In this document: positions 209-29,701 of the stretch, in pieces | How the letters are laid out: the number at the start of each line of letters is the position of its first letter | Numbering within the stretch: the stretch's first letter is position 1 | Origin: a virus | Lineage: Duplodnaviria; Caudoviricetes | Length of the DNA stretch: 31,958 bases | Direction: 5' to 3' (one strand) | Virus record (IMG/VR): IMGVR_UViG_3300012943_000023 | Span: 1-31,958 of that record | Notes under the pieces: generated by a model | What the model saw: the letters and a program-made list of their open reading frames with translations, nothing else | Told to the model about the DNA's origin: nothing | The model's database searches: none | Position numbers and translations under genes: made by a program

Positions 209-574
209 TTACTTTCCCCTATTCTCTCGGCACGCCTTCATATATGCAGCATCCATGGCCACAAGGATATTTATGAAGTATGGCCCGATGGTGTCGTCAA
301 ACAACTCCTCGTAGGCACGATACTCCGTCAATGGGATAGGCAGTTCGCCGCCCATTCCACCAAACTTACGTGACATGTTAAGGTATGAGAAACACGACGC
401 AAACAGATTGTTCATTGCGTCGAGTTCTTTTTCCTTATAGACGCCTGAGATTTTCTGGATGTCCCGAACTGACAACTGGCCTTCGATTTTGCGGCTACCA
501 AGGACTTCATCAGTGATAAAGTCCTTAAGTAGTTCAGTTCTGCTTGCGAAAAAAATTAGCCTTGTCCTGGACAA
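209..574 (-). CDS. Tail assembly chaperone, downstream (gpT-like) frame, probably reached by frameshift
   Basis: Lies between the gpG-like ORF and the tape measure; overlaps the gpG end at a T7 run; C-terminal GMGGELPIPLTEYRAY...LVAMDAAYM resembles gpT-type chaperones. Confidence 0.65.
   Translation of the reverse strand: MSRTRLIFFASRTELLKDFITDEVLGSRKIEGQLSVRDIQKISGVYKEKELDAMNNLFASCFSYLNMSRKFGGMGGELPIPLTEYRAYEELFDDTIGPYFINILVAMDAAYMKACRENRGK
268..275 (-). promoter_or_regulatory. NATAAATA late-promoter-like motif (CATAAATA)
   Basis: 60 nt upstream of tape measure start. Confidence 0.5.
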
Positions 575-881
575 TCTTCATGACGTCCTCGACAAGCCAC
601 TCGTTTTCCGTCTGCGACACCACGTCACGCACGTTCTCTGGCGTAAAGGCAAGTTCCATCTGGACTTCGTCCCAACCACGGATGATTGCGACCATAACGT
701 CCTCGACTGCCTTCTTCTGTTCCTTGAAGCCCTTCTTCTTGGCTTCCTCTGCAAGCAACATCTTCTCACGGACAAGAGTGTCCTGTGGGCCGGCGAGACG
801 CACCTTGATGCCCGTTGGACCAAGTGTGGAATGCACCAACTCGTGGTCGATTACCTGCGCTGATAGTTCTCTGAACTTCAT
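534..881 (-). CDS. Tail assembly chaperone (gpG-like)
   Basis: 115 aa between tail tube block and tape measure; AGGAG RBS; AIIRGWD...FTPENV...ANFF pattern typical of siphovirus chaperones. Confidence 0.75.
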   Translation of the reverse strand: MKFRELSAQVIDHELVHSTLGPTGIKVRLAGPQDTLVREKMLLAEEAKKKGFKEQKKAVEDVMVAIIRGWDEVQMELAFTPENVRDVVSQTENEWLVEDVMKIVQDKANFFRKQN

Positions 882-896
882 CTCTCTACTCCTTAC

Positions 897-2131: not shown

Positions 2132-2156
2132 TGTAATTTCTCCTTACGGGATGCTG

Positions 2157-2164
2157 TATTTATG
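2157..2164 (-). promoter_or_regulatory. NATAAATA late-promoter-like motif (CATAAATA)
   Basis: 26 nt upstream of tail tube start; contains the TAA stop of the upstream gene. Confidence 0.7.
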
Positions 2165-2549: not shown

Positions 2550-2853
2550 TGGTTACTCCCAGCGTGTAGTAGATTGTCGTCTCACCGTCGATGTTCTTGA
2601 ACTCAACGGATGAGATTGCATACCTGTCCTTGCCGATGAGGAGGACGTCTGACACCTGTGGCAACTTCGAAAGGTTCGACACGTAGGCTGTCTTACCGAG
2701 GGAGATTGACATATCGCCCTGACCAGCAGCGTTTGTCATGATGACAGCGACGCACGAAGACTTACCACCTGCAGCGTGTTCGATTGCAGCGACACGACCA
2801 TACTTGGTAATCAGTCGTGTTGCGACTGTCTTCATCTTCGTTGAGAACGACAT
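2542..2853 (-). CDS. Head closure / head-tail joining protein
   Basis: Start reassigned to ATG 2853 (TAATG overlap with upstream stop); ATRLITKYGR and PQVSDVLLIG..YAI motifs; synteny. Confidence 0.65.
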   Translation of the reverse strand: MSFSTKMKTVATRLITKYGRVAAIEHAAGGKSSCVAVIMTNAAGQGDMSISLGKTAYVSNLSKLPQVSDVLLIGKDRYAISSVEFKNIDGETTIYYTLGVTNA

Positions 2854-3386
2854 TACGCACCCCTCGTCTGGGTGATGCTGTAATCGTCGGCTGTCTTCAG
2901 GAGTGGTTCCAAAATCATCCACACACGGTAAAACGTGTCCTCTTTGAAGGTGTTCTTATACGTGTATGTAGTGGAGATGTCGCCGATGCTTTCGGACTTC
3001 TGCGTTACGGCTGCCTCATCTTGGTTGTAGAGGTCCTTGCCGCCATAGATGAGTGCCGCCATCTCAATGGTGGCCTCAGACAGTTCAAGAGGAATGCCGT
3101 CGTTCTCGTCCCAGTCACGTTCATTGTCGTAACTGTCGTATGATTGGGAAATATCACGTGGCCACTGAAGGACCTGGCCGACTGGACGATAGCCGATGAA
3201 CTTCTTACCGAAGCGACGGTCAATAGACTTTGACGCACGCTTGAGTAGTTTCTCAAGTTCAGTGAGGTCGCCCTCTTCTGCGTCTTCAGGAAGTTCGTTT
3301 GATGGGAGGTCAAGACCGTATTCCTCAGCATAGGCCAAGGCGTCTTCAGGCGAAACGTAGGTCTCTACGGCAAATTCGATAGCCAT
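2853..3386 (-). CDS. Head-tail adaptor (DnaT-like phage neck family)
   Basis: YVS.EDA.AY, L.RAS..ID, LQWPR, IP.EL.EAT.EMA, ESIGDISTTY motifs; immediately after capsid gene. Confidence 0.8.
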   Translation of the reverse strand: MAIEFAVETYVSPEDALAYAEEYGLDLPSNELPEDAEEGDLTELEKLLKRASKSIDRRFGKKFIGYRPVGQVLQWPRDISQSYDSYDNERDWDENDGIPLELSEATIEMAALIYGGKDLYNQDEAAVTQKSESIGDISTTYTYKNTFKEDTFYRVWMILEPLLKTADDYSITQTRGA

Positions 3387-3418
3387 TTGATTGTCCTCGT
3401 GAAATCACGGTATGCAAC

Positions 3419-3426
3419 TATTTATG
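3419..3426 (-). promoter_or_regulatory. NATAAATA late-promoter-like motif (CATAAATA)
   Basis: 33 nt upstream of the adaptor start, just after the capsid terminator. Confidence 0.7.
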
Positions 3427-3442
3427 CAAAATCTTCCATCGA

Positions 3443-3507: not shown

Positions 3508-4380
3508 TTAAGCCAGCGGAACAACGGTCGAAGAGACCGAACGCAGCGAGTGGATTGGCAGCGCGGCGTCAAGCGTTACGATGCTGGTCCAAGCGTCCTT
3601 ACCAACTTCAACAGGAACTTCCTGGAAGGTGAAGCGGCCGCTTTCTGGTTCAACAGCGCACATACCGTCCATCTCATCGCCGACCACTGCGTACAGCGGG
3701 CTGGTGTCTGGGGATGGGGTCGTGGAGGTGCTGATGAAGTCGTTGCGAACGAAAGGAACACCGTCGTAAGCAAGGAAGTAAACGCCATTCAGTTCGATGG
3801 TTGTGATACCACCTGCGCCACGCATTGCCTTCTTGAGGACGTTCTCAACAGCAGCGTTACCCATGAGGAACGCACCCTGCTTCTTGTGCAGCTTAGCAAG
3901 GATTGCGTCGACGTTAGCGAAAACGTCAGAACCCGTGTAAGAAACTGCCTGAGAAGTTGCAGTGGTGCCAGTGTGGGTAGCGAGGGCAGAAACAAGCGCA
4001 GCCTGGAAGGCGTAGATTGCCTGCTTAGCACCTGCCTGAACAGCGAGGTCCTTCTTGACGGCTGCGCCCTGGGCGCCAGCAGCACGAAGGTCACGGTTCG
4101 GGATTGAGTGAGTGCCGACATACGACACGATTGGGAGTGCAACCTGAGTGCTTGAGATTGCAGTGCCGGCGGTGATTGTGCCGTCAGCGGCTACAGTCGT
4201 GCCAGAACCAATGTCTGCAAGGCGGTTGAACGTGTATGCTGAACCAGCAGTCGTTGCCCATGGAAGAACAATCGACAGTTCTGGTGCGACCTTCGTGTAA
4301 AGGTCAATCAGCTGAGTGTTAAGGTCTGCTGGAACATACTTGTTGTTCTCAGTGGACGTGAAGTCTACGAACTTTGCCAT
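3508..4380 (-). CDS. Major capsid protein (HK97 fold, inferred)
   Basis: 290 aa after scaffold; LPW....GSAYTFNR E-loop-like and YDGVPFVRNDFI motifs; strong AAGGAG RBS; followed by terminator. Confidence 0.85.
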   Translation of the reverse strand: MAKFVDFTSTENNKYVPADLNTQLIDLYTKVAPELSIVLPWATTAGSAYTFNRLADIGSGTTVAADGTITAGTAISSTQVALPIVSYVGTHSIPNRDLRAAGAQGAAVKKDLAVQAGAKQAIYAFQAALVSALATHTGTTATSQAVSYTGSDVFANVDAILAKLHKKQGAFLMGNAAVENVLKKAMRGAGGITTIELNGVYFLAYDGVPFVRNDFISTSTTPSPDTSPLYAVVGDEMDGMCAVEPESGRFTFQEVPVEVGKDAWTSIVTLDAALPIHSLRSVSSTVVPLA

Positions 4381-4415: not shown

Positions 4416-5075
4416 TTAGGCCCTCGCCTTGAAGTAGTTAATGGACGGTTTTGTTGAACCACCACTGTTGTTATTTATGCGAACGTCACCAGGATTGCCC
4501 CTCTTTTGCTGATGGGATGGTCCCTGTGACGGCTTGACGAAGTGAGGTGCTGCCTTTAGGGTGTCCGAAAGCCAGGTCTGGAGGGTCAACGGATTGCCCT
4601 TGCTGTCCTTCGCATCATCCTTGGCAACAATCTTGCCTTCGTCGTCTACAGAGAACACATTTGCGGCCCTGTAGAACAGGTCCTCATATGCGGTCTCATA
4701 CACACCTGCCTCTGCCGCTGCCTTACGAATGCCTCCACCGAGGACGTAATCAGCGATACGAGACTTGTATGTCTCATTCTGCTTTCTGATGTCTGCAGTT
4801 TCTGTATCGAATGTCTGCTGCATCGTAGCAATAGTGGCGTCGGACTTCTCCTTAGCCTTTGCTGCAATGCGCTGTTCCAAGGTATCAGGGGTTACACCGC
4901 CTTCACCAAAGATTGCTGCAAACCCAGCGTATTTGTCCTTTTCCTTCAACAGGTTAACGTTGTTGGTGCGGAACTCATCGAGACTGGTCTTGACCTTTTT
5001 GAAGTCTTCGTCACTGTGAAGGACACCTTCGACCTTGACGTATTCACCAGTTTCATTCTTTGTAAAGTATTCCAT
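4416..5075 (-). CDS. Capsid scaffolding protein
   Basis: Charged coiled-coil protein between portal and capsid; EFRTNN and W...L...APHFVKPSQG motifs. Confidence 0.8.
   Translation of the reverse strand: MEYFTKNETGEYVKVEGVLHSDEDFKKVKTSLDEFRTNNVNLLKEKDKYAGFAAIFGEGGVTPDTLEQRIAAKAKEKSDATIATMQQTFDTETADIRKQNETYKSRIADYVLGGGIRKAAAEAGVYETAYEDLFYRAANVFSVDDEGKIVAKDDAKDSKGNPLTLQTWLSDTLKAAPHFVKPSQGPSHQQKRGNPGDVRINNNSGGSTKPSINYFKARA
4472..4479 (-). promoter_or_regulatory. NATAAATA late-promoter-like motif (CATAAATA)
   Basis: Inside scaffold 3' end, 92 nt upstream of capsid start. Confidence 0.6.
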
Positions 5076-5121: not shown

Positions 5122-5129
5122 TATTTATG
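5122..5129 (-). promoter_or_regulatory. NATAAATA late-promoter-like motif (CATAAATA)
   Basis: 47 nt upstream of scaffold start; contains the portal TAA stop. Confidence 0.7.
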
Positions 5130-6303
5130 CGTTTTCTGTAATATCCGCTGCATTCACAAACTCTTTGTTGAGTTCGATTGTTGTGTTTACACCAGAGATT
5201 TCAGTGATTAGGGCGAGGGTCTTGTTCATCTGTGACTGCACTGCGTTCACGATGGTCGTAAGACTTGCCGTCTCAGCAGATGACCTGATTGCAAGGGCAT
5301 CAGCACTCTCACCAACCGCCTTAGGTGCAACGAGACGTGAACCGGCTGCCGTGCAGCGGTCCTCAATCTTCTCAATCTCACCTGACAGCATGTTGTAGGA
5401 CGAACCACTTACCTCAGTGTAGTCAAGTGTTGCATTGTCTTCAATGTTGGTGACGTTCTTAGTCGAACCAACATAAATCTTTGCCTTCGACTGGACGCCC
5501 TCGCTGTCAGTGTAGGTCTTTAGTTCACCCTTGAGTGTCAGCGTTGGCAGGGCCATGAAGTGGCCGTAGTGTGCCAAGTCGCAAGACATGCGATAGTGTT
5601 GAATGTTGAGTTCGGCCTGTGTGAACAGCGGTGGGGCAAATACTTCCCACGTGCTGTCAAACGGGTTGGCTGGAAACAGCGGGATGTAGTCGATTGGGGT
5701 GCCACGGATTAGGAACTGTGGCAGGTCCTCATACACCCAAGTGTCCTTCTTGCCCTTGCGCCACTGACGCACCTTGTATTCGTCCTTGCCAGTAGCAGGA
5801 TTAAACTCGAGATAGTGTTCAGTGTAAAGGTCGATGACAATCAACTCAAAGTAGTTATCTGGGTTCTCGACCTCTTCAGTGTCATGAACAACAACACGAC
5901 GGTCAGACCAGTTGATGATGTCGAAGCCGCTGTAAACTGTGACCTTCGGCTTACCATCAGCGTTGATGGACACGAGGTTGACGTTGCGACTTGTAAGAAG
6001 AATGTTCTTGTAGATGATGTTCAAGAACGCAGTGATTGACGAGAACTCGTGTATGAACTCTGAAGACTGAATAGGCGCGTTCGACGTAAGCTGTCCGATG
6101 AGTTCTGAAGTGGTCGGTGCGACAATGTTGTTAAAGCCGGCACGGTTAAGGTAGGCCTCACGTTCAAGTTCAGTCTGTTCCTCGAGTTTCTCGACGTAAG
6201 ACTTCACGTTGCCGGTGAATGCAGCGTTGGTGAGTTTTGCCTTTTCAACAAGCATCTCATATTCACGGTGTGCTGTCGATGGGTTTACATTTGACTTGGC
6301 CAT
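5125..6303 (-). CDS. Portal protein (DUF4055-type)
   Basis: Follows TerL; AYLNRAGFNN, DIINW, PPL...AELNIQHYR.S.D...H...LPTL motifs. Confidence 0.88.
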   Translation of the reverse strand: MAKSNVNPSTAHREYEMLVEKAKLTNAAFTGNVKSYVEKLEEQTELEREAYLNRAGFNNIVAPTTSELIGQLTSNAPIQSSEFIHEFSSITAFLNIIYKNILLTSRNVNLVSINADGKPKVTVYSGFDIINWSDRRVVVHDTEEVENPDNYFELIVIDLYTEHYLEFNPATGKDEYKVRQWRKGKKDTWVYEDLPQFLIRGTPIDYIPLFPANPFDSTWEVFAPPLFTQAELNIQHYRMSCDLAHYGHFMALPTLTLKGELKTYTDSEGVQSKAKIYVGSTKNVTNIEDNATLDYTEVSGSSYNMLSGEIEKIEDRCTAAGSRLVAPKAVGESADALAIRSSAETASLTTIVNAVQSQMNKTLALITEISGVNTTIELNKEFVNAADITENA

Positions 6304-6322: not shown

Positions 6323-7681
6323 TTAGAAACCAGACATCACCACCGGTGCGGTCTGTGTGTTCTTGAGTTTAAATTCTCGTAGCATGAAGTATCCGAATGC
6401 ATCCACCGGACCTGAAATCTCGATGTTGGTGTTACCCAGTCTGCGTCCCTTTTCAGGCTTGCTTGACTGGTCATAGCACTGCGTCTCGAGAGACATTGTC
6501 AGATACTTGCATGTGCTTGTATTTATGTAGCATCTTACTGTATCTGCGGCGGATAGCAGCATTCCGTTGACAGTGTTGATGCGGTCTTTCACTGAACCTG
6601 GGTAGTTTGAGTTGGTTGTGATGACCGTGAAGCCTGCATTGCGTAACTGGGCATGGTCGGTGTCAGCCGACGTAGTCGAACGGACATACTGACCTGATGC
6701 GTCAGGGTACACGAGAATACGACGGTTGCCATATGCTTCCTTGATGTCCTTGATGAGGGCTGGGGTGTTGAGTGCGCCCATCAACTCATTGACCACATAA
6801 ACGACCGGCTTACCATTCTCCGTGCGAATGACACACACAACAGCAGACATACCATTGTTGTTGAAGTCGATGCCAATATGAAGGACGTCCTTGCTGAAGT
6901 CAAGCAGTGTGCGGTGATGGCGCTTACGGTCGAAGGTGTAGTAGACACGACCTTCAGCCAGGGTGAAGACGCACATTACTTCCTGCTGGAACTCAACAGC
7001 CGACATGTCAAACTTCATCTGTTCAATCTCAGACTGTTTGATTGAACCGGCCTCAGTAGTAGGGATACGAACAGAATACCAACCGGCCTTATGCGATGTT
7101 CCTGCCTGCCCCATCATGTAACGGTCATACATGTGGTTGAAGCCACGCGCCGTTCCGGTGATTACACTGCCGCCCATGTTGTCCATCAACATTGGGAACA
7201 CGATTGGGATGATGCCAGGGTCCATTGACTGAAATTCGTCAAGGCGCACCTTGTCAAGTGACTGACCAAGTAGCGCTTCCCAGTTCTCAACGCCACGCAG
7301 GGACATCGTTGAACCGTTAACAAGGTCTGCGCCAAGGCGGCCTGAACCCTTGTTTAGTTTCTTCACCATGCCAGGCGGAATGAGGGGTGGCAGAATGACG
7401 TTGCCTGGTAGTTTAACACGTTCAAACAACATCTTCCACATCAGTTCTTCAGCCTGACCATGTGTGAGTGCCAGGAACCACTGGTTGGTGGTGCGGGCCT
7501 GCGCCATCAGCGCCATGTCAACGGCCTGCATTGTCGTCTTTGCTGAACGGCGGCCTGCAACGGCAACCTTGTGGCGTGATGGGTTCAAGATGAAGTCTGA
7601 CTGCCACGGAAGCAGTTCAAGTCGTGGCCCAGTAGGACCTTCCTTCACGTTTGGGATGAGTTCCTCTTCAAGCGAAAGCAT
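6323..7681 (-). CDS. terL: Terminase large subunit
   Basis: Q motif (LLPWQ), Walker A VAGRRSAKT, Walker B VRLDE, motif III TGTARGFNH, nuclease IGIDFN, YPDASG, DAFGY. Confidence 0.95.
   Translation of the reverse strand: MLSLEEELIPNVKEGPTGPRLELLPWQSDFILNPSRHKVAVAGRRSAKTTMQAVDMALMAQARTTNQWFLALTHGQAEELMWKMLFERVKLPGNVILPPLIPPGMVKKLNKGSGRLGADLVNGSTMSLRGVENWEALLGQSLDKVRLDEFQSMDPGIIPIVFPMLMDNMGGSVITGTARGFNHMYDRYMMGQAGTSHKAGWYSVRIPTTEAGSIKQSEIEQMKFDMSAVEFQQEVMCVFTLAEGRVYYTFDRKRHHRTLLDFSKDVLHIGIDFNNNGMSAVVCVIRTENGKPVVYVVNELMGALNTPALIKDIKEAYGNRRILVYPDASGQYVRSTTSADTDHAQLRNAGFTVITTNSNYPGSVKDRINTVNGMLLSAADTVRCYINTSTCKYLTMSLETQCYDQSSKPEKGRRLGNTNIEISGPVDAFGYFMLREFKLKNTQTAPVVMSGF
6520..6527 (-). promoter_or_regulatory. 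NATAAATA late-promoter-like motif (CATAAATA)
   Basis: Within terL 3' end, about 217 nt upstream of portal start. Confidence 0.45.
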
Positions 7682-8258
7682 CTTCCCACCTCATCTTAGG
7701 ATAAGCTGACACTGTGCTGTCAACGTTTAGATTGACAACGCTGATGTTGAGACGTTCAAGGTCCTTCAGCAAATGACCGTGCTGTGCACCAAAGAAGTGA
7801 AATGCCGTCTCCGGGTTGTCTACTGGCTTTTGCCCCTTACCGTCATCCGGCCACAAGTGATTGCCAACGGTTGACGGCTTGCCATCGTATCCCAGGAGAT
7901 ACACTGTAGTGTAGCCCAACTGAACAGCGAGGTTGATTGCTGCACACCCCGAGTTGAAGCCATGGCGCAGACACCCAGGCGTAGTTGAGATGCCACGTTC
8001 ACCGTCAAATAACCACTGACGATACCAGATGTTCTCCGGTTTATCGTCTACATACTGCACTACACCACGGTGACACTCGTGCTGGCGCAGTTCAGGTTCC
8101 CAGTCACGGTGAAATTCCTTGTCGGCCCAATACACGTGGGTTGGGTTCTTGAGGTAGATGAACGCACGGTTGATGGTTATCGTCTTCTTGTCGTCAAGTA
8201 AGCTGAAGTCGAAGGTGCGAAGTGATGGGCCGCCGGCAACAATAAAGACCTCACTCAT
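7668..8258 (-). CDS. Maf/DUF115-GT42-like glycosyltransferase-fold protein
   Basis: VFIVAGGPSL, TITINRAF, NSGCAAINLAVQLGYTTVYLLGYD..., later H: pattern of the Maf/CstII-like CMP-ulosonate transferase fold. Confidence 0.7.
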   Translation of the reverse strand: MSEVFIVAGGPSLRTFDFSLLDDKKTITINRAFIYLKNPTHVYWADKEFHRDWEPELRQHECHRGVVQYVDDKPENIWYRQWLFDGERGISTTPGCLRHGFNSGCAAINLAVQLGYTTVYLLGYDGKPSTVGNHLWPDDGKGQKPVDNPETAFHFFGAQHGHLLKDLERLNISVVNLNVDSTVSAYPKMRWEDAFA

Positions 8259-8766
8259 TATGCGTCTCCGTGTAGTCTGCCTCTATTGACGGCTGCTGGT
8301 ACAATGGTTGCTGTGGTTGCTGCCCCTGAAAAACGATGGTTGGGGCAATGACCTGAGATGGTGTGTCAGTCTTCGCCTCATCGGTCTTGTTAATGCGGTG
8401 CAGCCTGTCGAGTTCCTGTCGCTGCGACTTCGACGTGTTGTCTGTTGCCACCATCCAAGTCAGGTCCATAAGGGCCTCAGCGGCATACGAATAGCCACGG
8501 TTGATGGTGACGTCTATTGACGGGTAGAACTCACGGATTTCGGCGAACTGTGCTACAGTGTAGCCAAGGCGATACGCCATTGCAGCCGGCTTGAATGATT
8601 TACGTGCCAGGCTGTCACAGACAGCGAGAATGTCTGCCTCAGAATGCTTACAGAATGATGGCACGACCTTTGCAGGGGCCAAAGTCTGTTCGAGTTGTTG
8701 GCTTACTCCGTCACGGACGGCAAGCCAGTAGTCAGTCTGTTCCACGGGAACTCCATACGCACCCAC
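8251..8766 (-). CDS. Putative terminase small subunit
   Basis: HTH-like AAMAYRLGYTVAQFAE..EFYPSI...INRG; position upstream of terL; low-complexity tail. Confidence 0.55.
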   Translation of the reverse strand: MGAYGVPVEQTDYWLAVRDGVSQQLEQTLAPAKVVPSFCKHSEADILAVCDSLARKSFKPAAMAYRLGYTVAQFAEIREFYPSIDVTINRGYSYAAEALMDLTWMVATDNTSKSQRQELDRLHRINKTDEAKTDTPSQVIAPTIVFQGQQPQQPLYQQPSIEADYTETHNE

Positions 8767-8778
8767 CGGGTGATACAG

Positions 8779-8786
8779 TATTTATG
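8779..8786 (-). promoter_or_regulatory. NATAAATA late-promoter-like motif (CATAAATA)
   Basis: Upstream of putative terS; contains the TAA stop of the GT29-like gene. Confidence 0.65.
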
Positions 8787-9312
8787 TATTCAGGCGCTGA
8801 TACGGCACAAGTGTAGGTAGTGCGTATGTCGGGCGCACGTCTACAGGCGGTGGCTGAATGACCGTAATCCTCGGGTCGTTCTCAATGTGCCACTTCTCGT
8901 ATCGATAGTTATGGCAGATACGTGGCTGATGTTCATACCAGTTCGACGATGCGAACCAGTCAAAGCCGATGATTGTGATGGTTGGGTTCATGACCAACTG
9001 GTGGTAGATTGCAATGAACCCTGTTGACAGACGCAGTTGGGTGTTGTGCTTACCTTGGTAGTCCTTGTCGAACTTCTGGGTGAACTCCTCAATATCGTAG
9101 TTGATGTTGATGTAGTTGCCGGCACCTGGCGCCCAGTCGTGCTGAGGTATCTTCTTTGCTGAACCGTAGTAAAGGAACGTGGTCTTGTGGCCCATAGCAC
9201 TGTAAAACGGTGCAGGTCTGTTGATGCGGCACACGATGTCAAAATCGTCGATGAACTTCGTAAAGTCGCCAGTATGGAAACTTAGCGCATTACCTACCAC
9301 TATCGTCCGCAT
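8782..9312 (-). CDS. GT29 (sialyltransferase)-like glycosyltransferase
   Basis: Start reassigned to ATG 9312; sialylmotif L-like IVVGNA...IDDFDIVCRINRPAP...GHKTT, S-like STGFIAI...ITIIGFD, VS-like HNYRYE. Confidence 0.75.
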   Translation of the reverse strand: MRTIVVGNALSFHTGDFTKFIDDFDIVCRINRPAPFYSAMGHKTTFLYYGSAKKIPQHDWAPGAGNYININYDIEEFTQKFDKDYQGKHNTQLRLSTGFIAIYHQLVMNPTITIIGFDWFASSNWYEHQPRICHNYRYEKWHIENDPRITVIQPPPVDVRPTYALPTLVPYQRLNT

Positions 9313-9547
9313 ATACCTGTTCCTCAAGGTCAAGGCGTGTAGCGTGTTCCCACTTCCACATGCCGTCATACTTACCAGTGCGAACGCAATAGCATTCACC
9401 AACCCTGATGTCCTCATATGGGAACGGGTCGTCGTTGGTGAAGAATGTAGTGGATGGACTTCCAGTGTCCAGCCACTCAAACTTCACGTAGTTGTCGGCC
9501 ACCTGCACTACACGGATGGCGATGGTCTTCTTATACACGTCGTTCAT
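9290..9547 (-). CDS. Hypothetical protein
   Basis: 85 aa, TAATG-coupled to upstream gene. Confidence 0.6.
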   Translation of the reverse strand: MNDVYKKTIAIRVVQVADNYVKFEWLDTGSPSTTFFTNDDPFPYEDIRVGECYCVRTGKYDGMWKWEHATRLDLEEQVYADDSGR

Positions 9548-10613: not shown

Positions 10614-10621
10614 TATTTATG
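10614..10621 (-). promoter_or_regulatory. NATAAATA late-promoter-like motif (CATAAATA)
   Basis: Intergenic, 27 nt upstream of start 10587. Confidence 0.7.
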
Positions 10622-11190: not shown

Positions 11191-11237
11191 GTCAATCTCC
11201 TTACTTTCATACTATGAGGAACAATCTCCTCTTGCTG

Positions 11238-11273
11238 GTATTTATCTGGTTTCCACAAAAACTTGCAAAAATC
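11238..11273 (-). promoter_or_regulatory. Composite promoter element, copy C
   Basis: GATTTTTGCAAGTTTTTGTGGAAACCAGATAAATAC, similar to copies at 14098 and 14470. Confidence 0.65.
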
Positions 11274-12075
11274 AGGTGTCTTCAAGGAACGGCGATTGTT
11301 TCACCAGCGCATCAATCTCCATCAACTGTCGCAGCAGCGGTTCGACGTTCGAAAGCAGCAGGCTGTTAGGGCCGTCGCTTAGCGCTTCATCTGGCCTTGG
11401 GTGTGTCTCAACGAAAAGACCGTCAACGCCTGCTGCAACGGCGCAGCGTGCCAACACCGGAATGGCGCAGCGCTGACCACCTGACTGGTCACCAAGGGCG
11501 CCTGGCTGCTGCACGCTGTGAGTAGCGTCGAACACCACTGGCGAAAACTTCCTCATGATAGGAATGCCCTTGAAGTCTGACACGAGGTTGTTGTAACCAA
11601 ACATGTAGCCACGTTCGCACACCCAGATGTCGTTGTTGCCTGTCGATTTCGCCTTTGCAACCACATTCTCCATCTCATGAGGAGACATGAACTGCCCCTT
11701 CTTGATGTTGACTGGCTTACCGTGAGAGGCGGCATTGATGATGAAGTCCGTCTGTCGGCAGAGGAAGGCAGGTGTCTGAAGCACATCGACTACCGACGCA
11801 ACCTCTGCGATTGGGGTGTATTCGTGTATGTCAGTGATGACGGGGCAACCATACGTGGCCCTGACATATTCAAGGGTCTTCAGCCCCTCGTCAATGCCTT
11901 GGCCACGGTATTTGTTCAGTGAAGAACGGTTGGCCTTGTCGTAGGACGCCTTGAAGATGAACTTTACCCCAAGGCAGTGCGTGATGTCTGTCAGCGTGCC
12001 AGCAATCTCATCGATTACGTCCTTGCTTTCGATTACGCAGGGACCAGCAATGAGGAACAGCGGCTTCACTTCCAC
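11272..12075 (-). CDS. kdsA: 3-deoxy-D-manno-octulosonate 8-phosphate synthase (metal-dependent type)
   Basis: IAGPCVIES, KASYDKANRSS, PAFLCRQT, NIKKGQF, ERG, DATHSVQQPG, ETHP..DEALSDG; start may be GTG 12069 (GTGA overlap with endolysin stop). Confidence 0.97.
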   Translation of the reverse strand: MEVKPLFLIAGPCVIESKDVIDEIAGTLTDITHCLGVKFIFKASYDKANRSSLNKYRGQGIDEGLKTLEYVRATYGCPVITDIHEYTPIAEVASVVDVLQTPAFLCRQTDFIINAASHGKPVNIKKGQFMSPHEMENVVAKAKSTGNNDIWVCERGYMFGYNNLVSDFKGIPIMRKFSPVVFDATHSVQQPGALGDQSGGQRCAIPVLARCAVAAGVDGLFVETHPRPDEALSDGPNSLLLSNVEPLLRQLMEIDALVKQSPFLEDT

Positions 12076-12506
12076 TGTCCCGTGATTACCTGGTCAGCAA
12101 GACGCTGGGCACGTGGCCCTACCTGCTTTGCCCATAGGCTGTTCAGCATGCCCTGGCTGGCAGCAATCCAGTCGCCACGTTCAAAGGCCGCAAGGGTGTT
12201 CTTGAACTGGAACAGTTTGTTGCCAAGGTTGAACGACATGTTCTGCAGGACAGCAAAGCGGACTGGGTCGGTGCACATCAACTTGGCTGTCCAAGGGCAC
12301 TGTGTCAGTAGGTCAGCTGTGTGCTTGGCGATGTTAGCGATGAGGTCGTCTTCACACTTCTGTGGCGTGATGCAATGGCCCTCCCACTTTGGATTGGTTG
12401 GGTCTGGCAGCAAGCAGCCAACGCCGACTGTCCATAGTCCCATAGTGTCCTTGTAGGCCGTGAGGCGGACGCCCTCGTCACGCTTGAGTTGTTCGATGAG
12501 GTTCAT
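12066..12506 (-). CDS. Endolysin, T4-type lysozyme (GH24)
   Basis: LKRDEGVRLTAYKDTMGLWTVGVG (E-D-T triad), NMSFNLG, SLWAKQVGPRAQRL; start ATG 12506 by TAATG overlap. Confidence 0.93.
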   Translation of the reverse strand: MNLIEQLKRDEGVRLTAYKDTMGLWTVGVGCLLPDPTNPKWEGHCITPQKCEDDLIANIAKHTADLLTQCPWTAKLMCTDPVRFAVLQNMSFNLGNKLFQFKNTLAAFERGDWIAASQGMLNSLWAKQVGPRAQRLADQVITGQWK

Positions 12507-12655
12507 TAGATATCCTGTGCGCATTCATAAGCGCAGTTGTCGCAGCAATCGCAACGTGGTATGGGGTCATTATGAACGTCTTCGTCATAAGGACATGGAT
12601 GTAGTTCTTTAGTCGCATCATTTACTCCGCAGCGGCACTTCTTTGGTGCGTCCAT
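12506..12655 (-). CDS. Small Cys-rich (metal-binding?) protein
   Basis: 49 aa, CRC...HPCPY...CDCCDNC...C; AAGGAG RBS. Confidence 0.6.
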   Translation of the reverse strand: MDAPKKCRCGVNDATKELHPCPYDEDVHNDPIPRCDCCDNCAYECAQDI

Positions 12656-14097: not shown

Positions 14098-14131
14098 GTA
14101 TTTATAGATTTCCACAGATTTTTGTAAAATC
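14098..14131 (-). promoter_or_regulatory. Composite promoter element, copy B (leftward)
   Basis: GATTTTACAAAAATCTGTGGAAATCTATAAATAC: TTTACA-16-TATAAA plus TATAAATA. Confidence 0.7.
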
Positions 14132-14345
14132 TCACCTCAATCAGACACCTCAACTCGATGTCGTGGGGCTGAGGTGGAGACTTGCCCTGCAAGTCGAACA
14201 CCGAAGACACATCGACTGGTGAGGTGCGCCAGCACCGAACCACACATCACAAGACGTGGCCTGGCGGCCAGAAGACGTGCTGATGTGTTAGCCGGCAAGC
14301 CGGCTTGGCCTGGCGGCCACCACACATCACCCCGCTTCGTCATCT

Positions 14346-14394
14346 GAAATAGTGTTCCAAATAGAATGACTTGTCTTATTACGAACACTATTTC
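14346..14394. repeat. 12-bp perfect inverted repeat
   Basis: GAAATAGTGTTC 14346-14357 / GAACACTATTTC 14383-14394, AT-rich 25-bp spacer. Confidence 0.85.
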
Positions 14395-14395
14395 G

Positions 14396-14444
14396 CATAC
14401 AACCGGTAGTAACTGGGCGGACTACTTACATACAACCGGTAGTA
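14396..14444. repeat. 16-bp direct repeat, iteron-like
   Basis: CATACAACCGGTAGTA at 14396-14411 and 14429-14444 (33-bp period). Confidence 0.85.
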
Positions 14445-14469
14445 TCTCCCAAACCAGCGAACCAGGCCT

Positions 14470-14504
14470 GATTTTACAAAGTTTTGTGGAAATGGTATAA
14501 ATAC
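14470..14504 (+). promoter_or_regulatory. Composite promoter element, copy A (rightward)
   Basis: TTTACA-17 bp-TATAAA with TGn extension, overlapping TATAAATA at 14496-14503. Confidence 0.75.
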
Positions 14505-14610: not shown

Positions 14611-15207
14611 ATGAGTAATTTAGTAGTCAAGACAAGGCCCTATTCAAGGGCGAAGGTGCCTGCTATGAAGCGTGGCCCATACAAGACAAAATCTATTTCA
14701 GAGAATATGCTGCCGCTGTTCGAACAGGCTTTGACCTGGGCGCAGGGGCAGCACCAGTTCTGCGTCACGAACAAACTCTACGACCGTGACTTCCCTATGA
14801 CACGCCTCTACAAGAGGTTCAACGCAACCAACCCACGCCGCAAGAAGGTCGTGGTGGATGCCATCTCAGTCTTCTTCAGTTACACCAAGCGTGGCAACGG
14901 CGAATACACCAACAAGAACGGTCAGCTGATTGCGCCACGCGCCACCCAGTGGAGGTCTCGCCCGCTGGTGTTCATCAATCAGACAATCTTCGACTTCGCC
15001 GTGAAACTCTGGCACGAGAACTCTTCGTGGGTCAGTGAGACCAACAAGGTCGTGTTCAAGAAGAAGGATGACGGCGAGGTCGAACTAACCGCAACGTTCA
15101 AGTTCGTCGGTGTTGATGCCATCCTGCTGGAAATCATCCAGAAGGGCATCGAATACGGCTTCGACATGGACGAACCTGTCAACCTTGTAAAGGAGATGTT
15201 GAAATGA
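14611..15207 (+). CDS. Basic hypothetical protein; candidate DNA-binding/replication initiator
   Basis: AAGGAG RBS; largest plus-strand gene, next to origin-like repeats; function inferred from position only. Confidence 0.6.
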   Translation: MSNLVVKTRPYSRAKVPAMKRGPYKTKSISENMLPLFEQALTWAQGQHQFCVTNKLYDRDFPMTRLYKRFNATNPRRKKVVVDAISVFFSYTKRGNGEYTNKNGQLIAPRATQWRSRPLVFINQTIFDFAVKLWHENSSWVSETNKVVFKKKDDGEVELTATFKFVGVDAILLEIIQKGIEYGFDMDEPVNLVKEMLK

Positions 15208-15413: not shown

Positions 15414-15447
15414 TATTGTTAAATGGGCAACACTGCTGATATCACTG

Positions 15448-15456
15448 TGATATAAT
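15448..15456 (+). promoter_or_regulatory. Extended -10 sigma70 promoter (TGnTATAAT)
   Basis: TGATATAAT 30 nt upstream of ATG 15486, AGGAGG RBS at 15475-15480. Confidence 0.65.
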
Positions 15457-15485
15457 GTCCTTGTCTGCTGAAGTAGGAGGAAAGT

Positions 15486-15758
15486 ATGAAGTCTCTCGAA
15501 CTCGCTGGTATTCTGGCCAACACTGAAGGTCGCATCTTCACGGCTACCTTCGTCAAGAGGACGACAGGTGAAGTTCGCACCATGACCTGCCGCACCGGTG
15601 TCAAGAAGCACAAGTCTGGTGCTGGGCTGGCGTTCAACCCTATCAAGAAGAATTTGTTGCCCGTCTGGGACATTGATGCGGACGGGTATCGCTTCATCAG
15701 CGTCGATGCGCTGCTGTCTGCTGTGGTGGATGGCAAGGAATACAAGGTGGCAGCATGA
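15486..15758 (+). CDS. Sm/SH3-like (DUF2693/WYL_2-type) phage protein
   Basis: IFTATFVKRTTGEVRTMTCRTGV...VWDIDADGYRFIS pattern. Confidence 0.7.
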   Translation: MKSLELAGILANTEGRIFTATFVKRTTGEVRTMTCRTGVKKHKSGAGLAFNPIKKNLLPVWDIDADGYRFISVDALLSAVVDGKEYKVAA

Positions 15759-20454: not shown

Positions 20455-20462
20455 TATTTATC
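20455..20462 (-). promoter_or_regulatory. NATAAATA late-promoter-like motif (GATAAATA)
   Basis: 45 nt upstream of start 20410; contains upstream TAA stop. Confidence 0.65.
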
Positions 20463-20898: not shown

Positions 20899-22227
20899 TT
20901 ATTCCGGGATGAAGCGCACGTATGACACGAACATGTATCTGTCTGTGCCAGGGGTTGCCACACCACCGAAGTTGGCATTGTTGGTGCCCCAGTGGTTGAT
21001 GAAGATTGGTGCTGCTGCGGTTGGCTTTACAGTTGTGTGGCTTGCCACCTGCACGCCGTTCACATAGAACGTAGTCCCTGCAGCAGACCATACGAACTTG
21101 TAGTGGCTAAAGCCCGTGTAAAGACCAGGAATGGTGTAATACGAACCCTGACTTTTGTTGGTTACCAACTCAAGTGAGAACGAAAACCAACCTGTTGCCG
21201 TACCTGAATATGTGCTTGTTGTAGTGCTTGACAACGTATCACCGGTCGTTGCACCATTGGTGTCGAATATTGCAATCTCGTTTGAGTTGGTTGCGTCGTT
21301 TGCACGAAGGGTGTAGCCAGAAGTCAGGCCGGCTTCGACGTTGGTGTTTGTTGCCTTGATACCAACACCACGAATTACCCAAGGGCGCTGCCATTCTTCT
21401 GCTTCTGTCTCAGAATATGTGAGTGCTGGATATGTGATGGTCTGTGGCGAAGATGAACCACCCTGGATTACACAGGCGCCGATTGGTCCCTGCAGAGAAG
21501 CACCATAGTAGCATAGCACTGCCACCTTGCCAGCGTTCGTCCACGTGCCACTTGTTTCAGAAGACGACGCAGCAATCTTGTAGGCGATGACCATTGCACG
21601 GTTCTGTCCGCTTGTACCAGCCGCAGACGTGACGGTTGTCCAGCCGGCTGGAACCGTTGGAACTGTGTTCGATGTGTTGTTGAAGGCGATTGCAATGAGG
21701 GTGTCTTCTGCCTGGTGCGTTGGCATTGTAACAGAGGTGGTTCCCTCAGCATGGCCACGGAAGTAGATACCATCCCACTTCCAGTTCGTCATCTCGATAT
21801 TGTCCTTGCGTGCATCAAGGCCCTCCAACTCGAAGTCGATTTCTGTTTCTGAGTTCGTCTTGTAGTTGAAGAAGGCGCTGATTGTGCCTGACACGTTGTT
21901 GCCGGCGACAGTAGGGTCGCCACTGTCAGACGACATTCTACCTACGAACTCGTATGTGCCGTAGCTGTAACTTGCAAGTGTGTGGATTTCAGAACCGACA
22001 GAGGCATACACACCTCCACCGAGGTCTGACTGAGACAGCTTAAGGCGCAACATACCGTAAGACATATCAACGTTTGCTGACGACATGCTTGCTTCATTAG
22101 TCGGGCTATCACCGACAGTGCCAGTCCCAGTTGAAATGGACCAAATCGCAGGGTCGAGGTAGCCCTTGTCAAAGCGTTCTTCGAATGAACCTGGTGGCAG
22201 TGGGCGTTGCGGATTACGGCGTGCCAT
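20899..22227 (-). CDS. GH16 glycoside hydrolase-like protein with inserted domain
   Basis: YSYGTYE, GTISAFF.Y, catalytic EIDFE, FSHYKFVW...FYVNG, PIFINHW, MFVSYVRF; about 205-aa insert after the catalytic strand. Confidence 0.8.
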   Translation of the reverse strand: MARRNPQRPLPPGSFEERFDKGYLDPAIWSISTGTGTVGDSPTNEASMSSANVDMSYGMLRLKLSQSDLGGGVYASVGSEIHTLASYSYGTYEFVGRMSSDSGDPTVAGNNVSGTISAFFNYKTNSETEIDFELEGLDARKDNIEMTNWKWDGIYFRGHAEGTTSVTMPTHQAEDTLIAIAFNNTSNTVPTVPAGWTTVTSAAGTSGQNRAMVIAYKIAASSSETSGTWTNAGKVAVLCYYGASLQGPIGACVIQGGSSSPQTITYPALTYSETEAEEWQRPWVIRGVGIKATNTNVEAGLTSGYTLRANDATNSNEIAIFDTNGATTGDTLSSTTTSTYSGTATGWFSFSLELVTNKSQGSYYTIPGLYTGFSHYKFVWSAAGTTFYVNGVQVASHTTVKPTAAAPIFINHWGTNNANFGGVATPGTDRYMFVSYVRFIPE

Positions 22228-22669
22228 TTTGCACCTGTGGAAGTGCTGCTTCTGCGCTTACCTTCGGCTGTGCCTTTGGCGGTGCACCAACAGAACGGGC
22301 CTGCTTGAATGCTGCCATAGAAGCGTCCTTTGCAGCCGTATCGACGACATCGGTATCTTCACTCTTTGGCGAGACTGTGTATGTCTGGCTGTCAGGAACG
22401 ATGGTGTCGGCTGAACCACCCTTGAGAACTTCATCCACCTTTGAGAGTGAGTAGAAGCCGGCAAGGACCGACTGGTCAATCTCACCGAGTTTGACGGTCT
22501 GGTAATGGTTCCAGGCAGGCATGTAGTCGCCATCACGTGTCTCCTTATCGACATACACTGCGTAGTGCATCGTGACAAGGTCCTTTGGGACGTTGATGGT
22601 GACGTTGATGAGTTTGAAGTATTCAGCGGTTACGCCGTTGTTCAACTTTACTTTCTGAATGACTGCCAT
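22214..22669 (-). CDS. Hypothetical tail-associated protein
   Basis: 151 aa, AGGAG RBS, follows tail-tip genes. Confidence 0.6.
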   Translation of the reverse strand: MAVIQKVKLNNGVTAEYFKLINVTINVPKDLVTMHYAVYVDKETRDGDYMPAWNHYQTVKLGEIDQSVLAGFYSLSKVDEVLKGGSADTIVPDSQTYTVSPKSEDTDVVDTAAKDASMAAFKQARSVGAPPKAQPKVSAEAALPQVQNGTP

Positions 22670-22693: not shown

Positions 22694-22701
22694 TATTTAT
22701 T
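22694..22701 (-). promoter_or_regulatory. NATAAATA late-promoter-like motif (AATAAATA)
   Basis: 25 nt upstream of start 22669; contains upstream TAA stop. Confidence 0.65.
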
Positions 22702-27200: not shown

Positions 27201-28785
27201 GTGACGACGATGTCGAACCAGTGGCTGCCTTACGTGCGGTCAGCTTAACGCCGGCCCAACGTTCATCGTAGATTTCAACAACTTCACCCTCAGTAATGTC
27301 AGCGTGTGCAATGGAGAGTTTGAAGCCAGCCGTCCATTGCTGAAGGGTGTTAGTGTAAAGCATGTTCTTGGCACCACGCAGCGCCTGACCTTCGCTGGTG
27401 ATACCGTCAAAGCGGTATTCTGTCGAACGCACGTCAGAGAATGGTGACAGTTCGTAGTTTGAATACGTTACGTTCTTTTCAAGCCAGTTCTCATTCTTGT
27501 CGTGATACCATGTATTGACCTCATTCCACTGCGTGGTGAGACCGGCCTGTGTGTATGAAACGTTACCTGCAATGATGTCAAGATTTGACAACTGACGATA
27601 TGGACCGGAAACAGGGCGGTCCTGGATGACGGTCAGAAGACCTTCAATCACCTGCACATACGCATTACCAACGGCGCAGATGTCCTGAATACGTAGTGGT
27701 GCGACCTTTTGGTCCATAAACTGGAAATCAAAGGTGAAGCGGCGTTCTGTGCCACTCACTTCGCCATTCACGAGTGCATTTACCTGGCCATCTGCATAGA
27801 CAGCCGCATCATAGAACGAACCAAGGTCGATGACGGTATCGTCAATCTTGTCGCCGATACCTACATCAGGGTTTGTAAGCAGTTCAAGTACAATCCAGAA
27901 TGGGTTCGACGTTGAAACCTTCGTCTCAGAAAACTCAAGGTCCCACTCGCCCGTGTAAGTGTGTGTGTCTGGGTCATAGTTAGACGGAACACGACAGAGA
28001 AGACCGGCAATATCAAAGTTGATAGATGGGAAGTCTGTGCCGACAGTGTTCGTGTCAATAAGAGTGCGAATGACGGTGTTGCCATCATATGTGCTGGTGT
28101 CATTCAAGATTTCTTCAACACCGTAAACTTGGGTGAGGTCAATCGTCTTGCCGTCGGTGTTGTCTTCAGTATCACGAACAACACGGATTTGCCACGTGCC
28201 GGCGCCAGATGGGCGCTTGATACCAACTTCTACATCGAACTTCTCGTCTGCCTTACTTTCAGCATACATCGTCTTTACGGTAGTCCAACTGCCGTCAGCA
28301 ACCAACTTACGCTGGAAAGTCAGTGAGATTGGGGTTGCCTTACGCTTGCCCTTCTTCGAGGTATGATAGAGACCGGCCGGGAAACGAACGATTACGTGTG
28401 CAATGTCGATATCTGAACCGGAAAGGTTGTGGGTGTATGGCGTGTCGTGCGTTAGGTTCTGCTGAATGTTGAAGAACGTAACAGTGGCTGGCATACCTTC
28501 AAGTGCTGCCTGACCTGTCGAACCATCACGCTGTTCATAGTCGAACGGTTCAAGAACAGTAGTTCCCTCATCACTCTCTACCTGGTTGTTATTGACGAAG
28601 ATAGAACGCTTTGGGTGTGCAGAGTTGTAGAGACCGCCAGTTTTGCCGACAGACACGAGGTGCAGCATTTCTGCGATTGCTGGCTTGACAGTGATATCAC
28701 GTGGCAGCGTAAGACCTGCGCGGGCATCACGTTCCTGATTATTGCGACGCTGCAGTTCATTGATAAGTGAAATAGGAACGCCCAT
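24232..28785 (-). CDS. Central tail fibre / tip attachment protein (lambda gpJ-like)
   Basis: 1517 aa; RVPSNYDP...YTGEWD..F....TSNPFW, ERRFTFD, AIEYDANKY, FN3-like repeats, C-terminal VYDSSNAVRVKIGDL. Confidence 0.92.
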   Translation of the reverse strand: MGVPISLINELQRRNNQERDARAGLTLPRDITVKPAIAEMLHLVSVGKTGGLYNSAHPKRSIFVNNNQVESDEGTTVLEPFDYEQRDGSTGQAALEGMPATVTFFNIQQNLTHDTPYTHNLSGSDIDIAHVIVRFPAGLYHTSKKGKRKATPISLTFQRKLVADGSWTTVKTMYAESKADEKFDVEVGIKRPSGAGTWQIRVVRDTEDNTDGKTIDLTQVYGVEEILNDTSTYDGNTVIRTLIDTNTVGTDFPSINFDIAGLLCRVPSNYDPDTHTYTGEWDLEFSETKVSTSNPFWIVLELLTNPDVGIGDKIDDTVIDLGSFYDAAVYADGQVNALVNGEVSGTERRFTFDFQFMDQKVAPLRIQDICAVGNAYVQVIEGLLTVIQDRPVSGPYRQLSNLDIIAGNVSYTQAGLTTQWNEVNTWYHDKNENWLEKNVTYSNYELSPFSDVRSTEYRFDGITSEGQALRGAKNMLYTNTLQQWTAGFKLSIAHADITEGEVVEIYDERWAGVKLTARKAATGSTSSSLKLDRPITVLNGETFKILDDDGETWLQRTITANSTGDTVSYSGGDISAKINPNIYFQRAIVGKPWKIVEKRRVSELEFEFLAIEYDANKYALIDDTPVGITPSYTQNFEVAAPENLSAEQHAFINDDNTVHQQLVLTWDRPGTVVRGYQIHLSVGDSAPIGTWGCTQTSFTLDIPYDAYYKVEVRAIGFGGRVSEPAVLYYTYNSIDPDADNDFDAVTTLVDFTDGGTIFNTDDLKFKFLNPSSNSTNPLALKDFWVQILDLSDNVVREFALDPVEPGEYQTGEYLYQDNLDDNNGVPERKFKVRVYLRDGFNRKNTTPTTVTFNNPPPGIPPGLNIVAGLSSVVITFDLPGVKDFEGVLIWRSTDIGFVPSIDNLIYDGTDSYVVDSNVTANAPVYYIVGCYDSFWKSYDGTGLVISSNIKVTVVGDGNDNLARNSDMFARDTAEFLEDGVTANPNRYRPYQWWGFQYDTSYADMGVEYVDRTGLGSDTSLAFKCVDATDALYMGFNTVNWYAPTETVAIPPWETGVDYTLSFYAKKENGANLTTMALGLDVLPDTVEYLLNPDLSTEWQRYAVHFKWDGTTDSNYLFVLFHGTPEVDDVLLIDRIQLEKASSYSGWTPRLEELLPGSITEVYIADDAIITPKLAALAVTGDKIAGNTIIAREKIVVGSIDKAQLQTSGDVNMLDTSKWVPGVALSALARNDEGTDYGWYSDSDSAKRSWVLTTGPSGHVVTAFKATSNDAYTSGEQNDGVIYTGLIPIDITKTYRLSVWFKPSGDFTNGIVVGGNSYGYTATGIDSELNDVAGSLAPDTGVVTWRPDQGTADRWYLAVMYIFPYGTTGADPDTAGVYDGTTQIQILPGSIGANKVFKATTNYIGFTCGQYNAANGAITYFWNPRVEMCDGNEPTLESILATGGVSGRNPINTANQDVIIEDGAITAPKMNVVELSAITGTIGLCRTATSGERVEIADNQITVYDSSNAVRVKIGDLS

Positions 28786-29405
28786 TATGCTTCTGCCTCA
28801 ATGTAGTATTGCGCCGTATAGTTAGAACCAACAATGACAGAACCGCAACGAACCCTCTCACCTACTGCAAGTGGCTTTGCGGTGCCCATCTCAGTGATGT
28901 TTGGCAGGTAGCCGAACACCTGTTCCTTACCAGACGTTTCAAGTTTGGCCGTCTTCATCATGAAGCCCATGACACCCATCATAGCAAGTGAGAAACCAAG
29001 CATACCTACCCAATAGGCATATGTGGCACCCCAACTAAAAGGGTTGATGACAGAAACCACAATAAGAACAACACCGATGACAATCTTGATAGCGTTGCCA
29101 AGCCAACCAGCGGCTTCAGTTTCAGCGTAGAAGTCAATGGCGATAGCATTCAACTTAAATGGCATGCAGTCAGCTGCATCAAGCCAATCTTCTGTGCCAT
29201 CCTTCTTGGTGCGCTTGATGGCCCATGAACCGGACTTCAAATCGACTGTGATGTATTTGCCAAAGCGAAACTGAAGGCCACGCAGAAGTTGCGTCATATT
29301 GTCGGCCTTAACGGTCACTTCCTTGCCTCGACCATACTTACGGCCAAGCCAGTTGTGTAGGCGAACTTTGACGGTCTGTGGTGATTTTACTGCAACTTGT
29401 TCCAT
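28785..29405 (-). CDS. Tail assembly protein (lambda gpI-like)
   Basis: VRLHNWLGRKYG ubiquitin-like N-terminus, hydrophobic middle, G..KPLAVGERVRCGSVIV. Confidence 0.85.
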   Translation of the reverse strand: MEQVAVKSPQTVKVRLHNWLGRKYGRGKEVTVKADNMTQLLRGLQFRFGKYITVDLKSGSWAIKRTKKDGTEDWLDAADCMPFKLNAIAIDFYAETEAAGWLGNAIKIVIGVVLIVVSVINPFSWGATYAYWVGMLGFSLAMMGVMGFMMKTAKLETSGKEQVFGYLPNITEMGTAKPLAVGERVRCGSVIVGSNYTAQYYIEAEA

Positions 29406-29701
29406 TTTCTACCTTCTACATAATACAGAAGCCACGGTCTTGCCTCTAACTTTTGACTTCTCTTGTCTGTTTCACTGAACTCATCCTTCGCATCACCTAT
29501 GGTGTGTGAATGAATGAAGAAGTCGTAATCATCAGGCAAACGACCACGAAAGTTAGTCGTTGGGCTGTCGTGTGTATTTATGACGATTTGTAGTTCGTCA
29601 CCGACAATGACAGCACCAACCTCATTAGGATACGCAGAACTGGCGTATTCTTCAAACTTAGCCAGTAACTCTTCGAACACGGCCGGCACCAGGAAATTCA
29701 A
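29387..29701 (-). CDS. JAB/MPN-domain tail assembly protein (gpK N-terminal domain only)
   Basis: YPNE.GAVI, IHSH......FSETD, PWLLY; no NlpC/P60 domain. Confidence 0.8.
   Translation of the reverse strand: MNFLVPAVFEELLAKFEEYASSAYPNEVGAVIVGDELQIVINTHDSPTTNFRGRLPDDYDFFIHSHTIGDAKDEFSETDKRSQKLEARPWLLYYVEGRKWNKLQ
29575..29582 (-). promoter_or_regulatory. NATAAATA late-promoter-like motif (CATAAATA)
   Basis: Inside K-like gene, 170 nt upstream of I-like start. Confidence 0.45.

Follow-up and report, generated by a model that had tools for sequence, protein, structure and literature searches.

Likely T4-type late promoters in a small complete siphovirus and its likely dependence on a T4-like helper phage

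The genome and its genes

We analyzed the virus record IMGVR_UViG_3300012943_000023 (Duplodnaviria; Caudoviricetes) over its positions 1 to 31,958, a stretch of 31,958 nucleotides (nt) referred to here as the window, and in particular the copies of the heptamer ATAAATA (the box) that precede its genes. A first-pass annotation of this DNA had suggested that the boxes are late promoters of the T4 type in a small siphovirus that borrows late transcription from a helper. Our analysis points to a complete small siphovirus in which the boxes are likely T4-type late promoters, and which likely depends on the late sigma factor gp55 of a co-infecting T4-like phage.

The window is a complete genome in the form of a closed 31.8-kilobase (kb) siphovirus circle, as it carries an end repeat of 123 nt and a 31,865-nt contig of soil run X1, which may be where the window came from, joins to itself; depth was flat and no host junction was seen over the 20 kb examined. 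Scans of 48 open reading frames (ORFs) with Pfam and PHROGs identified terminase, portal, scaffold, capsid, adaptor and a lambda-like tail, together with holin, lysozyme, kdsA, cupin, methyltransferase and glycosyltransferase-like genes, and about 20 window ORFs have no assigned family. Among these 48 ORFs the same libraries revealed no sigma factor, clamp, polymerase, primase, helicase or integrase, and NCBIfam, applied to 30 of the ORFs, revealed none either. In all, four profile libraries or tools gave no sigma-like match in the window. There is no transfer RNA gene in the window and it gave no match in Rfam.

The window capsid matched none of the cultured phages. A prophage search in species genomes confirmed none among 600 pattern matches, with two matches among 29 belonging to the outgroup defined below, and the plasmid matches were distant capsids at no more than 31% (among 10 of 939 matches listed). 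Head-gene DNA of the relative G002 (see below) had no counterpart in E. coli genomes. The kdsA product shares 56-67% identity with copies from gamma- and betaproteobacteria, the best being from Steroidobacteraceae (1/64 parts scanned), which is a weak hint at a proteobacterial host. The genes for surface sugars, namely kdsA, two sialyltransferase-like genes and a cupin, lie at 7668-9480 and 11272-13126.

Abundance and arrangement of the boxes

The window holds 16 exact copies of ATAAATA where 1.02 are expected, and in the comparison with shuffled sequence that the first-pass annotation had called for, the maximum among 100 shuffles was 5. ATAAATA is also the most enriched 7-mer of the window. 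The count of 16 given in that annotation, its claim of an excess far above chance and its positions for the 15 minus-strand boxes were thus borne out. The single plus-strand copy is also real, but its core occupies 14497-14503, the position 14496 given previously being the preceding T. All 16 boxes point the same way as the local genes. Eleven lie 24-48 nt before a start codon and the box at 268 lies 59 nt before one, so that 12 are found within 60 nt, while the remaining four sit 91, 107, 169 and 216 nt upstream. The base preceding the core is C in 11 copies, which read CATAAATA, G in two, T in two and A in one. Orientation, the 12 close boxes and the 11 CATAAATA copies all agree with what had been noted before. 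The individual boxes and other features are listed in Table 1.

Table 1. Boxes and other features of the window (positions are those of the window).
Position	Strand	Feature	Context
268..274	-	CATAAATA box	59 nt before tape-measure gene (GTG at 208, across circle junction to 30535)
2157..2163	-	CATAAATA box	precedes tail tube gene 1214-2131; site kept in 14/14 family records
3419..3425	-	CATAAATA box	precedes head-tail adaptor 2853-3386; site in 12/14 family records
4472..4478	-	CATAAATA box	91 nt upstream of major capsid gene 3508-4380
5122..5128	-	CATAAATA box	precedes scaffold gene 4416-5075; site in 14/14 family records
6520..6526	-	CATAAATA box	within terL 3' end, 216 nt before portal gene 5125-6303
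8779..8785	-	CATAAATA box	precedes likely small terminase 8251-8745, sialyltransferase-like gene, terL 6323-7681
10614..10620	-	CATAAATA box	precedes small unknown genes and GT29-like gene (10587 to 8782)
11239..11270	-	GATAAATA box and upstream TGATTTT...TGTGGAAA element	precedes weakly VRR-NUC-like gene 10627-11190 (E 0.008)
11272..12524	-	kdsA (KDO8P synthase, above NCBIfam cut-off) and lysozyme	unit downstream of 14099 box
14099..14131	-	TATAAATA box and upstream GATTTT...TGTGGAAA element	leftward half of divergent pair, precedes 13748-14053
14132..14469	.	repeat-rich spacer between divergent boxes	19-nt, 14-nt and 12-nt direct repeats; 18-nt inverted repeat
14470..14503	+	TATAAATA box and upstream GATTTT...TGTGGAAA element	rightward half of divergent pair, precedes 14611-15207
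14611..15207	+	198-amino-acid orphan protein, not gp55-like	
15441..15758	+	host-type extended -10 TGaTATAAT (at 15448) and phrog_2267 / 'WYL domain'-labelled gene of 90 amino acids	
17423..17429	-	CATAAATA box	precedes holin 16977-17390 and methyltransferase
20455..20461	-	GATAAATA box	precedes 19937-20410 and gene of 808 amino acids
20872..20878	-	CATAAATA box	precedes phrog_1084 gene 20458-20847; relatives match tail-fibre assembly families
22694..22700	-	AATAAATA box	precedes 22214-22669 and GH16-bearing tail gene
29575..29581	-	CATAAATA box	precedes tail assembly and central fibre J genes (29405 to 24232)

The box signal is strict, as forms with one mismatch are depleted (16 in the window against 28-47 across 12 simulations) and C-, G- and T-TAAATA have zero copies. 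Most boxes have no -35 element, and the T at -7 that sigma-70 spacing would place is missing as well. The window boxes show the (N)ATAAATA core, the lack of a -35 and the gene-facing orientation of a T4-type late promoter. The two TATAAATA copies do have TTTACA 16-17 nt upstream; since their -7 T is missing too, their possible use as sigma-70 promoters is left open. These features speak against the idea that a host sigma factor or regulator reads the box, making the window an ordinary host-dependent phage, which we consider very improbable. To our knowledge, no bacterial sigma consensus equals ATAAATA. The clade described below spans 38-64% in GC content and probably has many hosts, and in the bacterial class suggested by kdsA, gp55-like genes were found in 2 of 400 genomes (1 unscored), with two of three matches adjoining gp46/47, a T4-like context where checked.

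Conservation of the box in related phages

The window belongs to a clade of uncultured relatives defined by capsid, hereafter the family, with near-complete members of 31.8-37.7 kb and capsid identities mostly of 30-35%. In a tree of 70 capsids (quick method, midpoint root, no clade test, rows shorter than 200 amino acids dropped), one branch with a Shimodaira-Hasegawa-like approximate likelihood ratio (SH-aLRT) support of 99 splits 28 rows, including the window, from an outgroup of 42 that includes PaMx28 and Effie. Enough upstream DNA was available for 24 of the 28 ingroup loci, the other four being cut too near the capsid gene. In 23 of these 24, xTAAATA is found 720-860 nt upstream of the capsid gene, while the remaining locus, L053, has GCTAAGTA there; the same range holds a site in 2 of the 42 outgroup rows, though many of these rows are short. 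Among the 14 longer family records, which include several close kin, the box precedes scaffold and tail tube in all 14 and the adaptor in 12.

The nearest cultured phages by capsid, PaMx28, Acinetobacter phage Effie and Brevundimonas phage Leszy, have a similar head module and capsids 27-30% identical to a family capsid, but their genomes are of 54-86 kb and show no box conserved upstream of the scaffold or tail tube genes. The cultured controls lack the pattern: PaMx28 has 2 copies and Leszy 0, and in Effie (25 copies) and Vibrio 1.168.O (11 copies) they are scattered over both strands.

Gene clusters common to at least 5 of the 14 longer records are all virion or packaging clusters, and in a looser gene comparison across the clade, sharing outside the virion genes is pairwise only. 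Nucleases of the GIY-YIG, HNH and endonuclease VII types and a denV-like gene are found in G001, G002, G003, G005, G009, G011, G012 and G013. Such genes are common in T4-like phages, and their presence in the family possibly reflects gene flow from helpers.

Some members have additional features. The sub-lineage L030-L031 (G004), L020 and L185-L186 (G011) has another tail module (phiJL001 gp84-like hub, NlpC/P60) with the same boxes, and G009 carries a ParB-methyltransferase. L187 (G012) encodes tyrosine and serine integrases at 6860-7441 and 11156-12721, possibly a sign of an integrated form or else of flanking DNA.

Promoter geometry and lineage variants

In T4, late transcription by gp55 with gp33 and gp45 uses TATAAATA at -13 to -6, of which -13 is loose (PMC1524935, PMC2988020, PMC2984593). 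The related phage Aeh1 uses CTAAATA (PMC1524935), and the late box of cyanophages is NATAAATA (PMC2984593). The window boxes resemble these promoters in the core, the loose -13, the lack of a -35 and the predicted geometry of the start. At the predicted start, which in T4 lies 6 nt downstream of the box (+1), C occurs in 8 and a purine in 96 of 145 family sites that were filtered to lie outside long ORFs and at most 110 nt from a start codon. The window alone has no C and 13 purines among 16 sites, and cultured T4-like phages above 43% GC have 3 C and 42 purines among 57. Neighbouring positions in the family show no such base bias.

That the box is an RNA-level or DNA-binding signal rather than a promoter would fit with its variable distance to the start codon, 24-216 nt. 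This is hardly credible, as the base bias falls exactly at T4's +1, and the box is changed in the one member that has its own gp55 (L053, see below).

The family also has lineage variants, which recur in cultured T4-like phages. G003 uses CTAAATA in 7 of 10 boxes, G012 uses GTAAATA in 7 of 9 and L053 uses CTAAGTA in all three, while among T4-like phages CTAAATA is found in phiM12 (4/6), GTAAATA in IME-SM1 (4/7), CTAAGTA in RSP15 (6/18) and ATAAATA in XacN1 (3/5). As in T4-like phages, boxes stand before virion genes. Overall, the boxes are quite probably T4-type promoters that gp55 would read.

Search for the factor that reads the boxes

The first-pass annotation had recognized no gp55 or clamp in the window, and this was upheld by library scans, a gp55 profile and searches with T4 and pf16 proteins. 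The gp55 family phrog_234 was found in none of 10 family records, seven of them with terminal repeats, while it matched 8 of 9 large myophages used as controls, missing BcepSauron. A profile of 23 gp55 sequences run against 5,511 six-frame segments of 21 family records matched only L053 (E 6e-18), the next value being 1.1. In the profile comparison with gp55, 19 window ORFs reached no more than 2% each, as compared with 98% for the control. The replication and recombination proteins of T4 and pf16 had no match in 17 family records. Altogether, gp55, clamp, clamp loader, polymerase and gp46/47 were not detected in the window, gp33 being covered by the library scans only.

The exception, L053 (G015), is a 9.1-kb fragment with gp55 at 213-878 (221 amino acids; phrog_234 E 2e-15; 98% in the profile comparison), whose best match is the gp55 of XacN1. 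The gene is followed by a GIY-YIG endonuclease, terS, terL and a portal of the family type. All three boxes of L053 read GCTAAGTA, making it the sole surveyed record with this form throughout; its near twin L055 shows one more. G009, a complete close relative of L053, has no gp55. No close homologue of the L053 gp55 was found, and the gene also lies within a 14.9-kb contig.

L053 raises the alternative that the boxes are of the gp55 type but that the sigma factor comes from a gp55-bearing clade member or a resident element rather than from a T4-like myophage. The position of its gp55 next to family terminase and portal genes agrees with this, and gp55 by itself supports basal transcription from supercoiled templates (PMC2988020). 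We nonetheless regard this source as quite unlikely, since only one of the 21 family records carries gp55 and its box differs from that of the window, and 79 of 80 sampled gp55 loci adjoin T4-like genes and none adjoins family virion genes (5/64 parts scanned). Such a helper would also leave the missing replication genes unexplained. A T4-like phage is the likely source of the reading factor.

Spacer, upstream element and candidate regulators

Three boxes share a near-palindromic GATTTT(T)RCAA...TGTGGAAA element on their upstream side (11239-11270, 14099-14131 and 14470-14503), possibly an operator for a phage protein. A search for TTTT..TGTGGAAA in viral contigs gave six matches, in AT-rich contigs; as none of the six is followed by a box, they were taken as chance. 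The spacer between the divergent boxes is a candidate origin or operator region, and the protein of 14611-15207 is, by position only, an origin-binding or regulatory candidate. AlphaFold2 without an alignment gave this protein a predicted local distance difference test (pLDDT) score of 35, and in the ESM Atlas both it and the product of 13748-14053 gave unnamed viral clusters or no usable match. A relation of the 14611-15207 protein to a protein of 187 amino acids in G003 was not supported (E 0.93).

The clearest candidate for a host-polymerase promoter in the genome is the perfect extended -10 at 15448, which lies on the palindrome ATATCAC-T-GTGATAT upstream of the gene starting at 15486. Homologues of this phrog_2267 gene include those of the jumbo phages Phosso and Atu_ph07, and G004 and L020 have the gene too, oriented against the main strand.

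These genes should be considered with respect to a further alternative, an autonomous phage in which an unrecognized protein of its own (e.g., that of 14611-15207 or 13748-14053) directs the host RNA polymerase to the boxes, with replication by host enzymes from 14132-14469. Indeed, every genome has unassigned genes of 100-230 amino acids near divergent boxes, and some of these are common to lineage pairs, such as 13748-14053, which is related to a G009 protein (E 9e-6). However, an activator of the clade's own would be expected to appear as a shared gene, and while the box is nearly invariant, no non-virion gene is common to the clade. The profile comparison given above found nothing resembling gp55 among the 19 ORFs, and both candidate genes themselves lie behind a box, so that the only independent start is that of the gene at 15486. 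An autonomous phage thus appears unlikely.

Discussion

Of the first-pass proposal that late transcription is borrowed, the promoter part has stood, with clade conservation, the +1 signature and the gp55 of L053 behind it, while the dependence on a T4-like helper is what we infer as likely from these observations and from the lack of a shared non-virion gene. In the simplest account, gp55 would be the cognate factor and all but one lineage would obtain it from outside. The genome would enter, or wait in, a Gram-negative host, probably a proteobacterium, and remain nearly silent, expressing at most a few genes from the host polymerase. When a T4-like phage then gives the host RNA polymerase the specificity of gp55, all 16 boxes would fire. 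In T4, late genes are transcribed in step with replication, and their transcription requires gp33 as well as a gp45 clamp loaded on DNA (PMC2988020). As no polymerase, primase or helicase is seen in the window and T4 late transcription needs the loaded clamp, the helper replisome and gp45 would probably act on the window DNA too, with the spacer 14132-14469 as the candidate origin.

Several points weigh against this account and should be considered. Neither a helper nor a host was observed, nor any co-occurrence or RNA 5' end, and no RNA run was listed as containing the genome. Only 7 of the 14 longer records have the box at the portal site, and in the AT-rich L011, L014 and L022 the total box counts are at chance (p 0.5-0.9), so that the evidence there is positional only. 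The outgroup rows L092, L098 and L099 show some TAAATA near the capsid gene, in L098 and L099 as GATAAATA 9 nt before the called capsid start, on contigs binned with bacteria. For the start signature, the nominal p of 6e-8 is too optimistic, as the family sites come from related genomes and orthologous places and are not independent. The number of sites behind the variant matches is small, 3-18 per phage, with only three boxes each in the stretches of ViI and phiW-14 examined. Replication dependence is not clade-wide, given that G005, L011 and L022 encode primase and helicase. With about 20 unassigned ORFs in the window and a fold of low confidence, a structurally unrelated activator is possible, and as the clade can carry its own gp55, a gp55-bearing relative could serve as helper.

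As compared with T4, the window is a 32-kb siphovirus with a lambda-like tail, no gp55, gp45, gp44/62, gp43 or gp46/47 was detected in it, and its boxes precede non-virion genes as well. The contractile tail, gp23-type capsid and genome of more than 150 kb of T4-like phages are all absent, lambda-like tail genes and a 31.8-kb circle being found instead.

With its own virion proteins and no recognized key replication genes, the window shares two traits with satellite viruses of the MiniFlayer kind, the second of which does not extend to G005, L011 and L022. P4 late promoters respond to the helper activator Ogr. P4, PICI, PLE, cf-PICI and the jumbo-phage island I55 are helper-dependent (PMC10690885, PMC12772148), as the window likely is, but they take capsids or tails, integrate and have a replicase of their own, while the window builds a whole particle and has no integrase or replicase (for capsid-taking satellites, see PMC12772148 and PMC8096241). 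The window had been presented previously as the reverse of capsid-stealing satellites; satellites that build a virion of their own have, however, been described before. MiniFlayer and MulchRoom, satellites of Streptomyces phages (PMC10690885), have their own encapsidation genes, lack primase or other replication genes and need a helper, and Ando (PMC13587820) and the Acinetobacter satellite Phanie (described in PMC11476376) likewise have encapsidation genes, miss replication genes and need a helper. Ando and Phanie take helper tails, however, whereas the window clade has a full tail and lysis set. The main texts on MiniFlayer and Ando, searched by word, make no mention of a promoter or sigma factor, while the window clade has a visible helper-type promoter.

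By analogy, the closer parallel for the window is that of the virophages of giant viruses. Sputnik, Mavirus and Guarani are small viruses with their own capsid in which the late promoter of the large virus precedes the genes (PMC6723459), and they are deemed to use the transcription machinery of the large virus (PMC6723459). A large-virus type of late promoter before most genes and an own capsid are both found in the window, although it is not a virophage as a taxon: virophages infect protists together with giant viruses, while the window is a tailed bacteriophage whose helper we infer. We lean towards the view that a widespread, uncultured clade of tailed phages of 32-38 kb is the bacterial counterpart of the virophages, forming complete virions but expressing their genes through the late sigma factor of lytic T4-like phages, with the box variant tracking the helper lineage and one lineage having escaped by capturing gp55.

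In the literature covered, from which most subscription papers and supplements fall outside, we found no small phage without a sigma factor that runs on T4 late promoters, and no satellite that uses a T4-like late sigma factor. T4-like phages, which shut down the host's own transcription, rank among the most abundant of the lytic phages. If our account holds, many of the small 'complete' phage genomes that lack replication genes would be parasites of other phages, which would explain why such phages stay uncultured. The promoter would then be a marker for such phages and a direct handle on them via cloned gp55, and a screen for TAAATA without gp55 would pick them out of any metagenome and predict the helper of each. 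The captured gp55 of L053 would, in turn, offer a natural system for studying co-change between a sigma factor and its promoter, and the passage between a satellite and a free phage.

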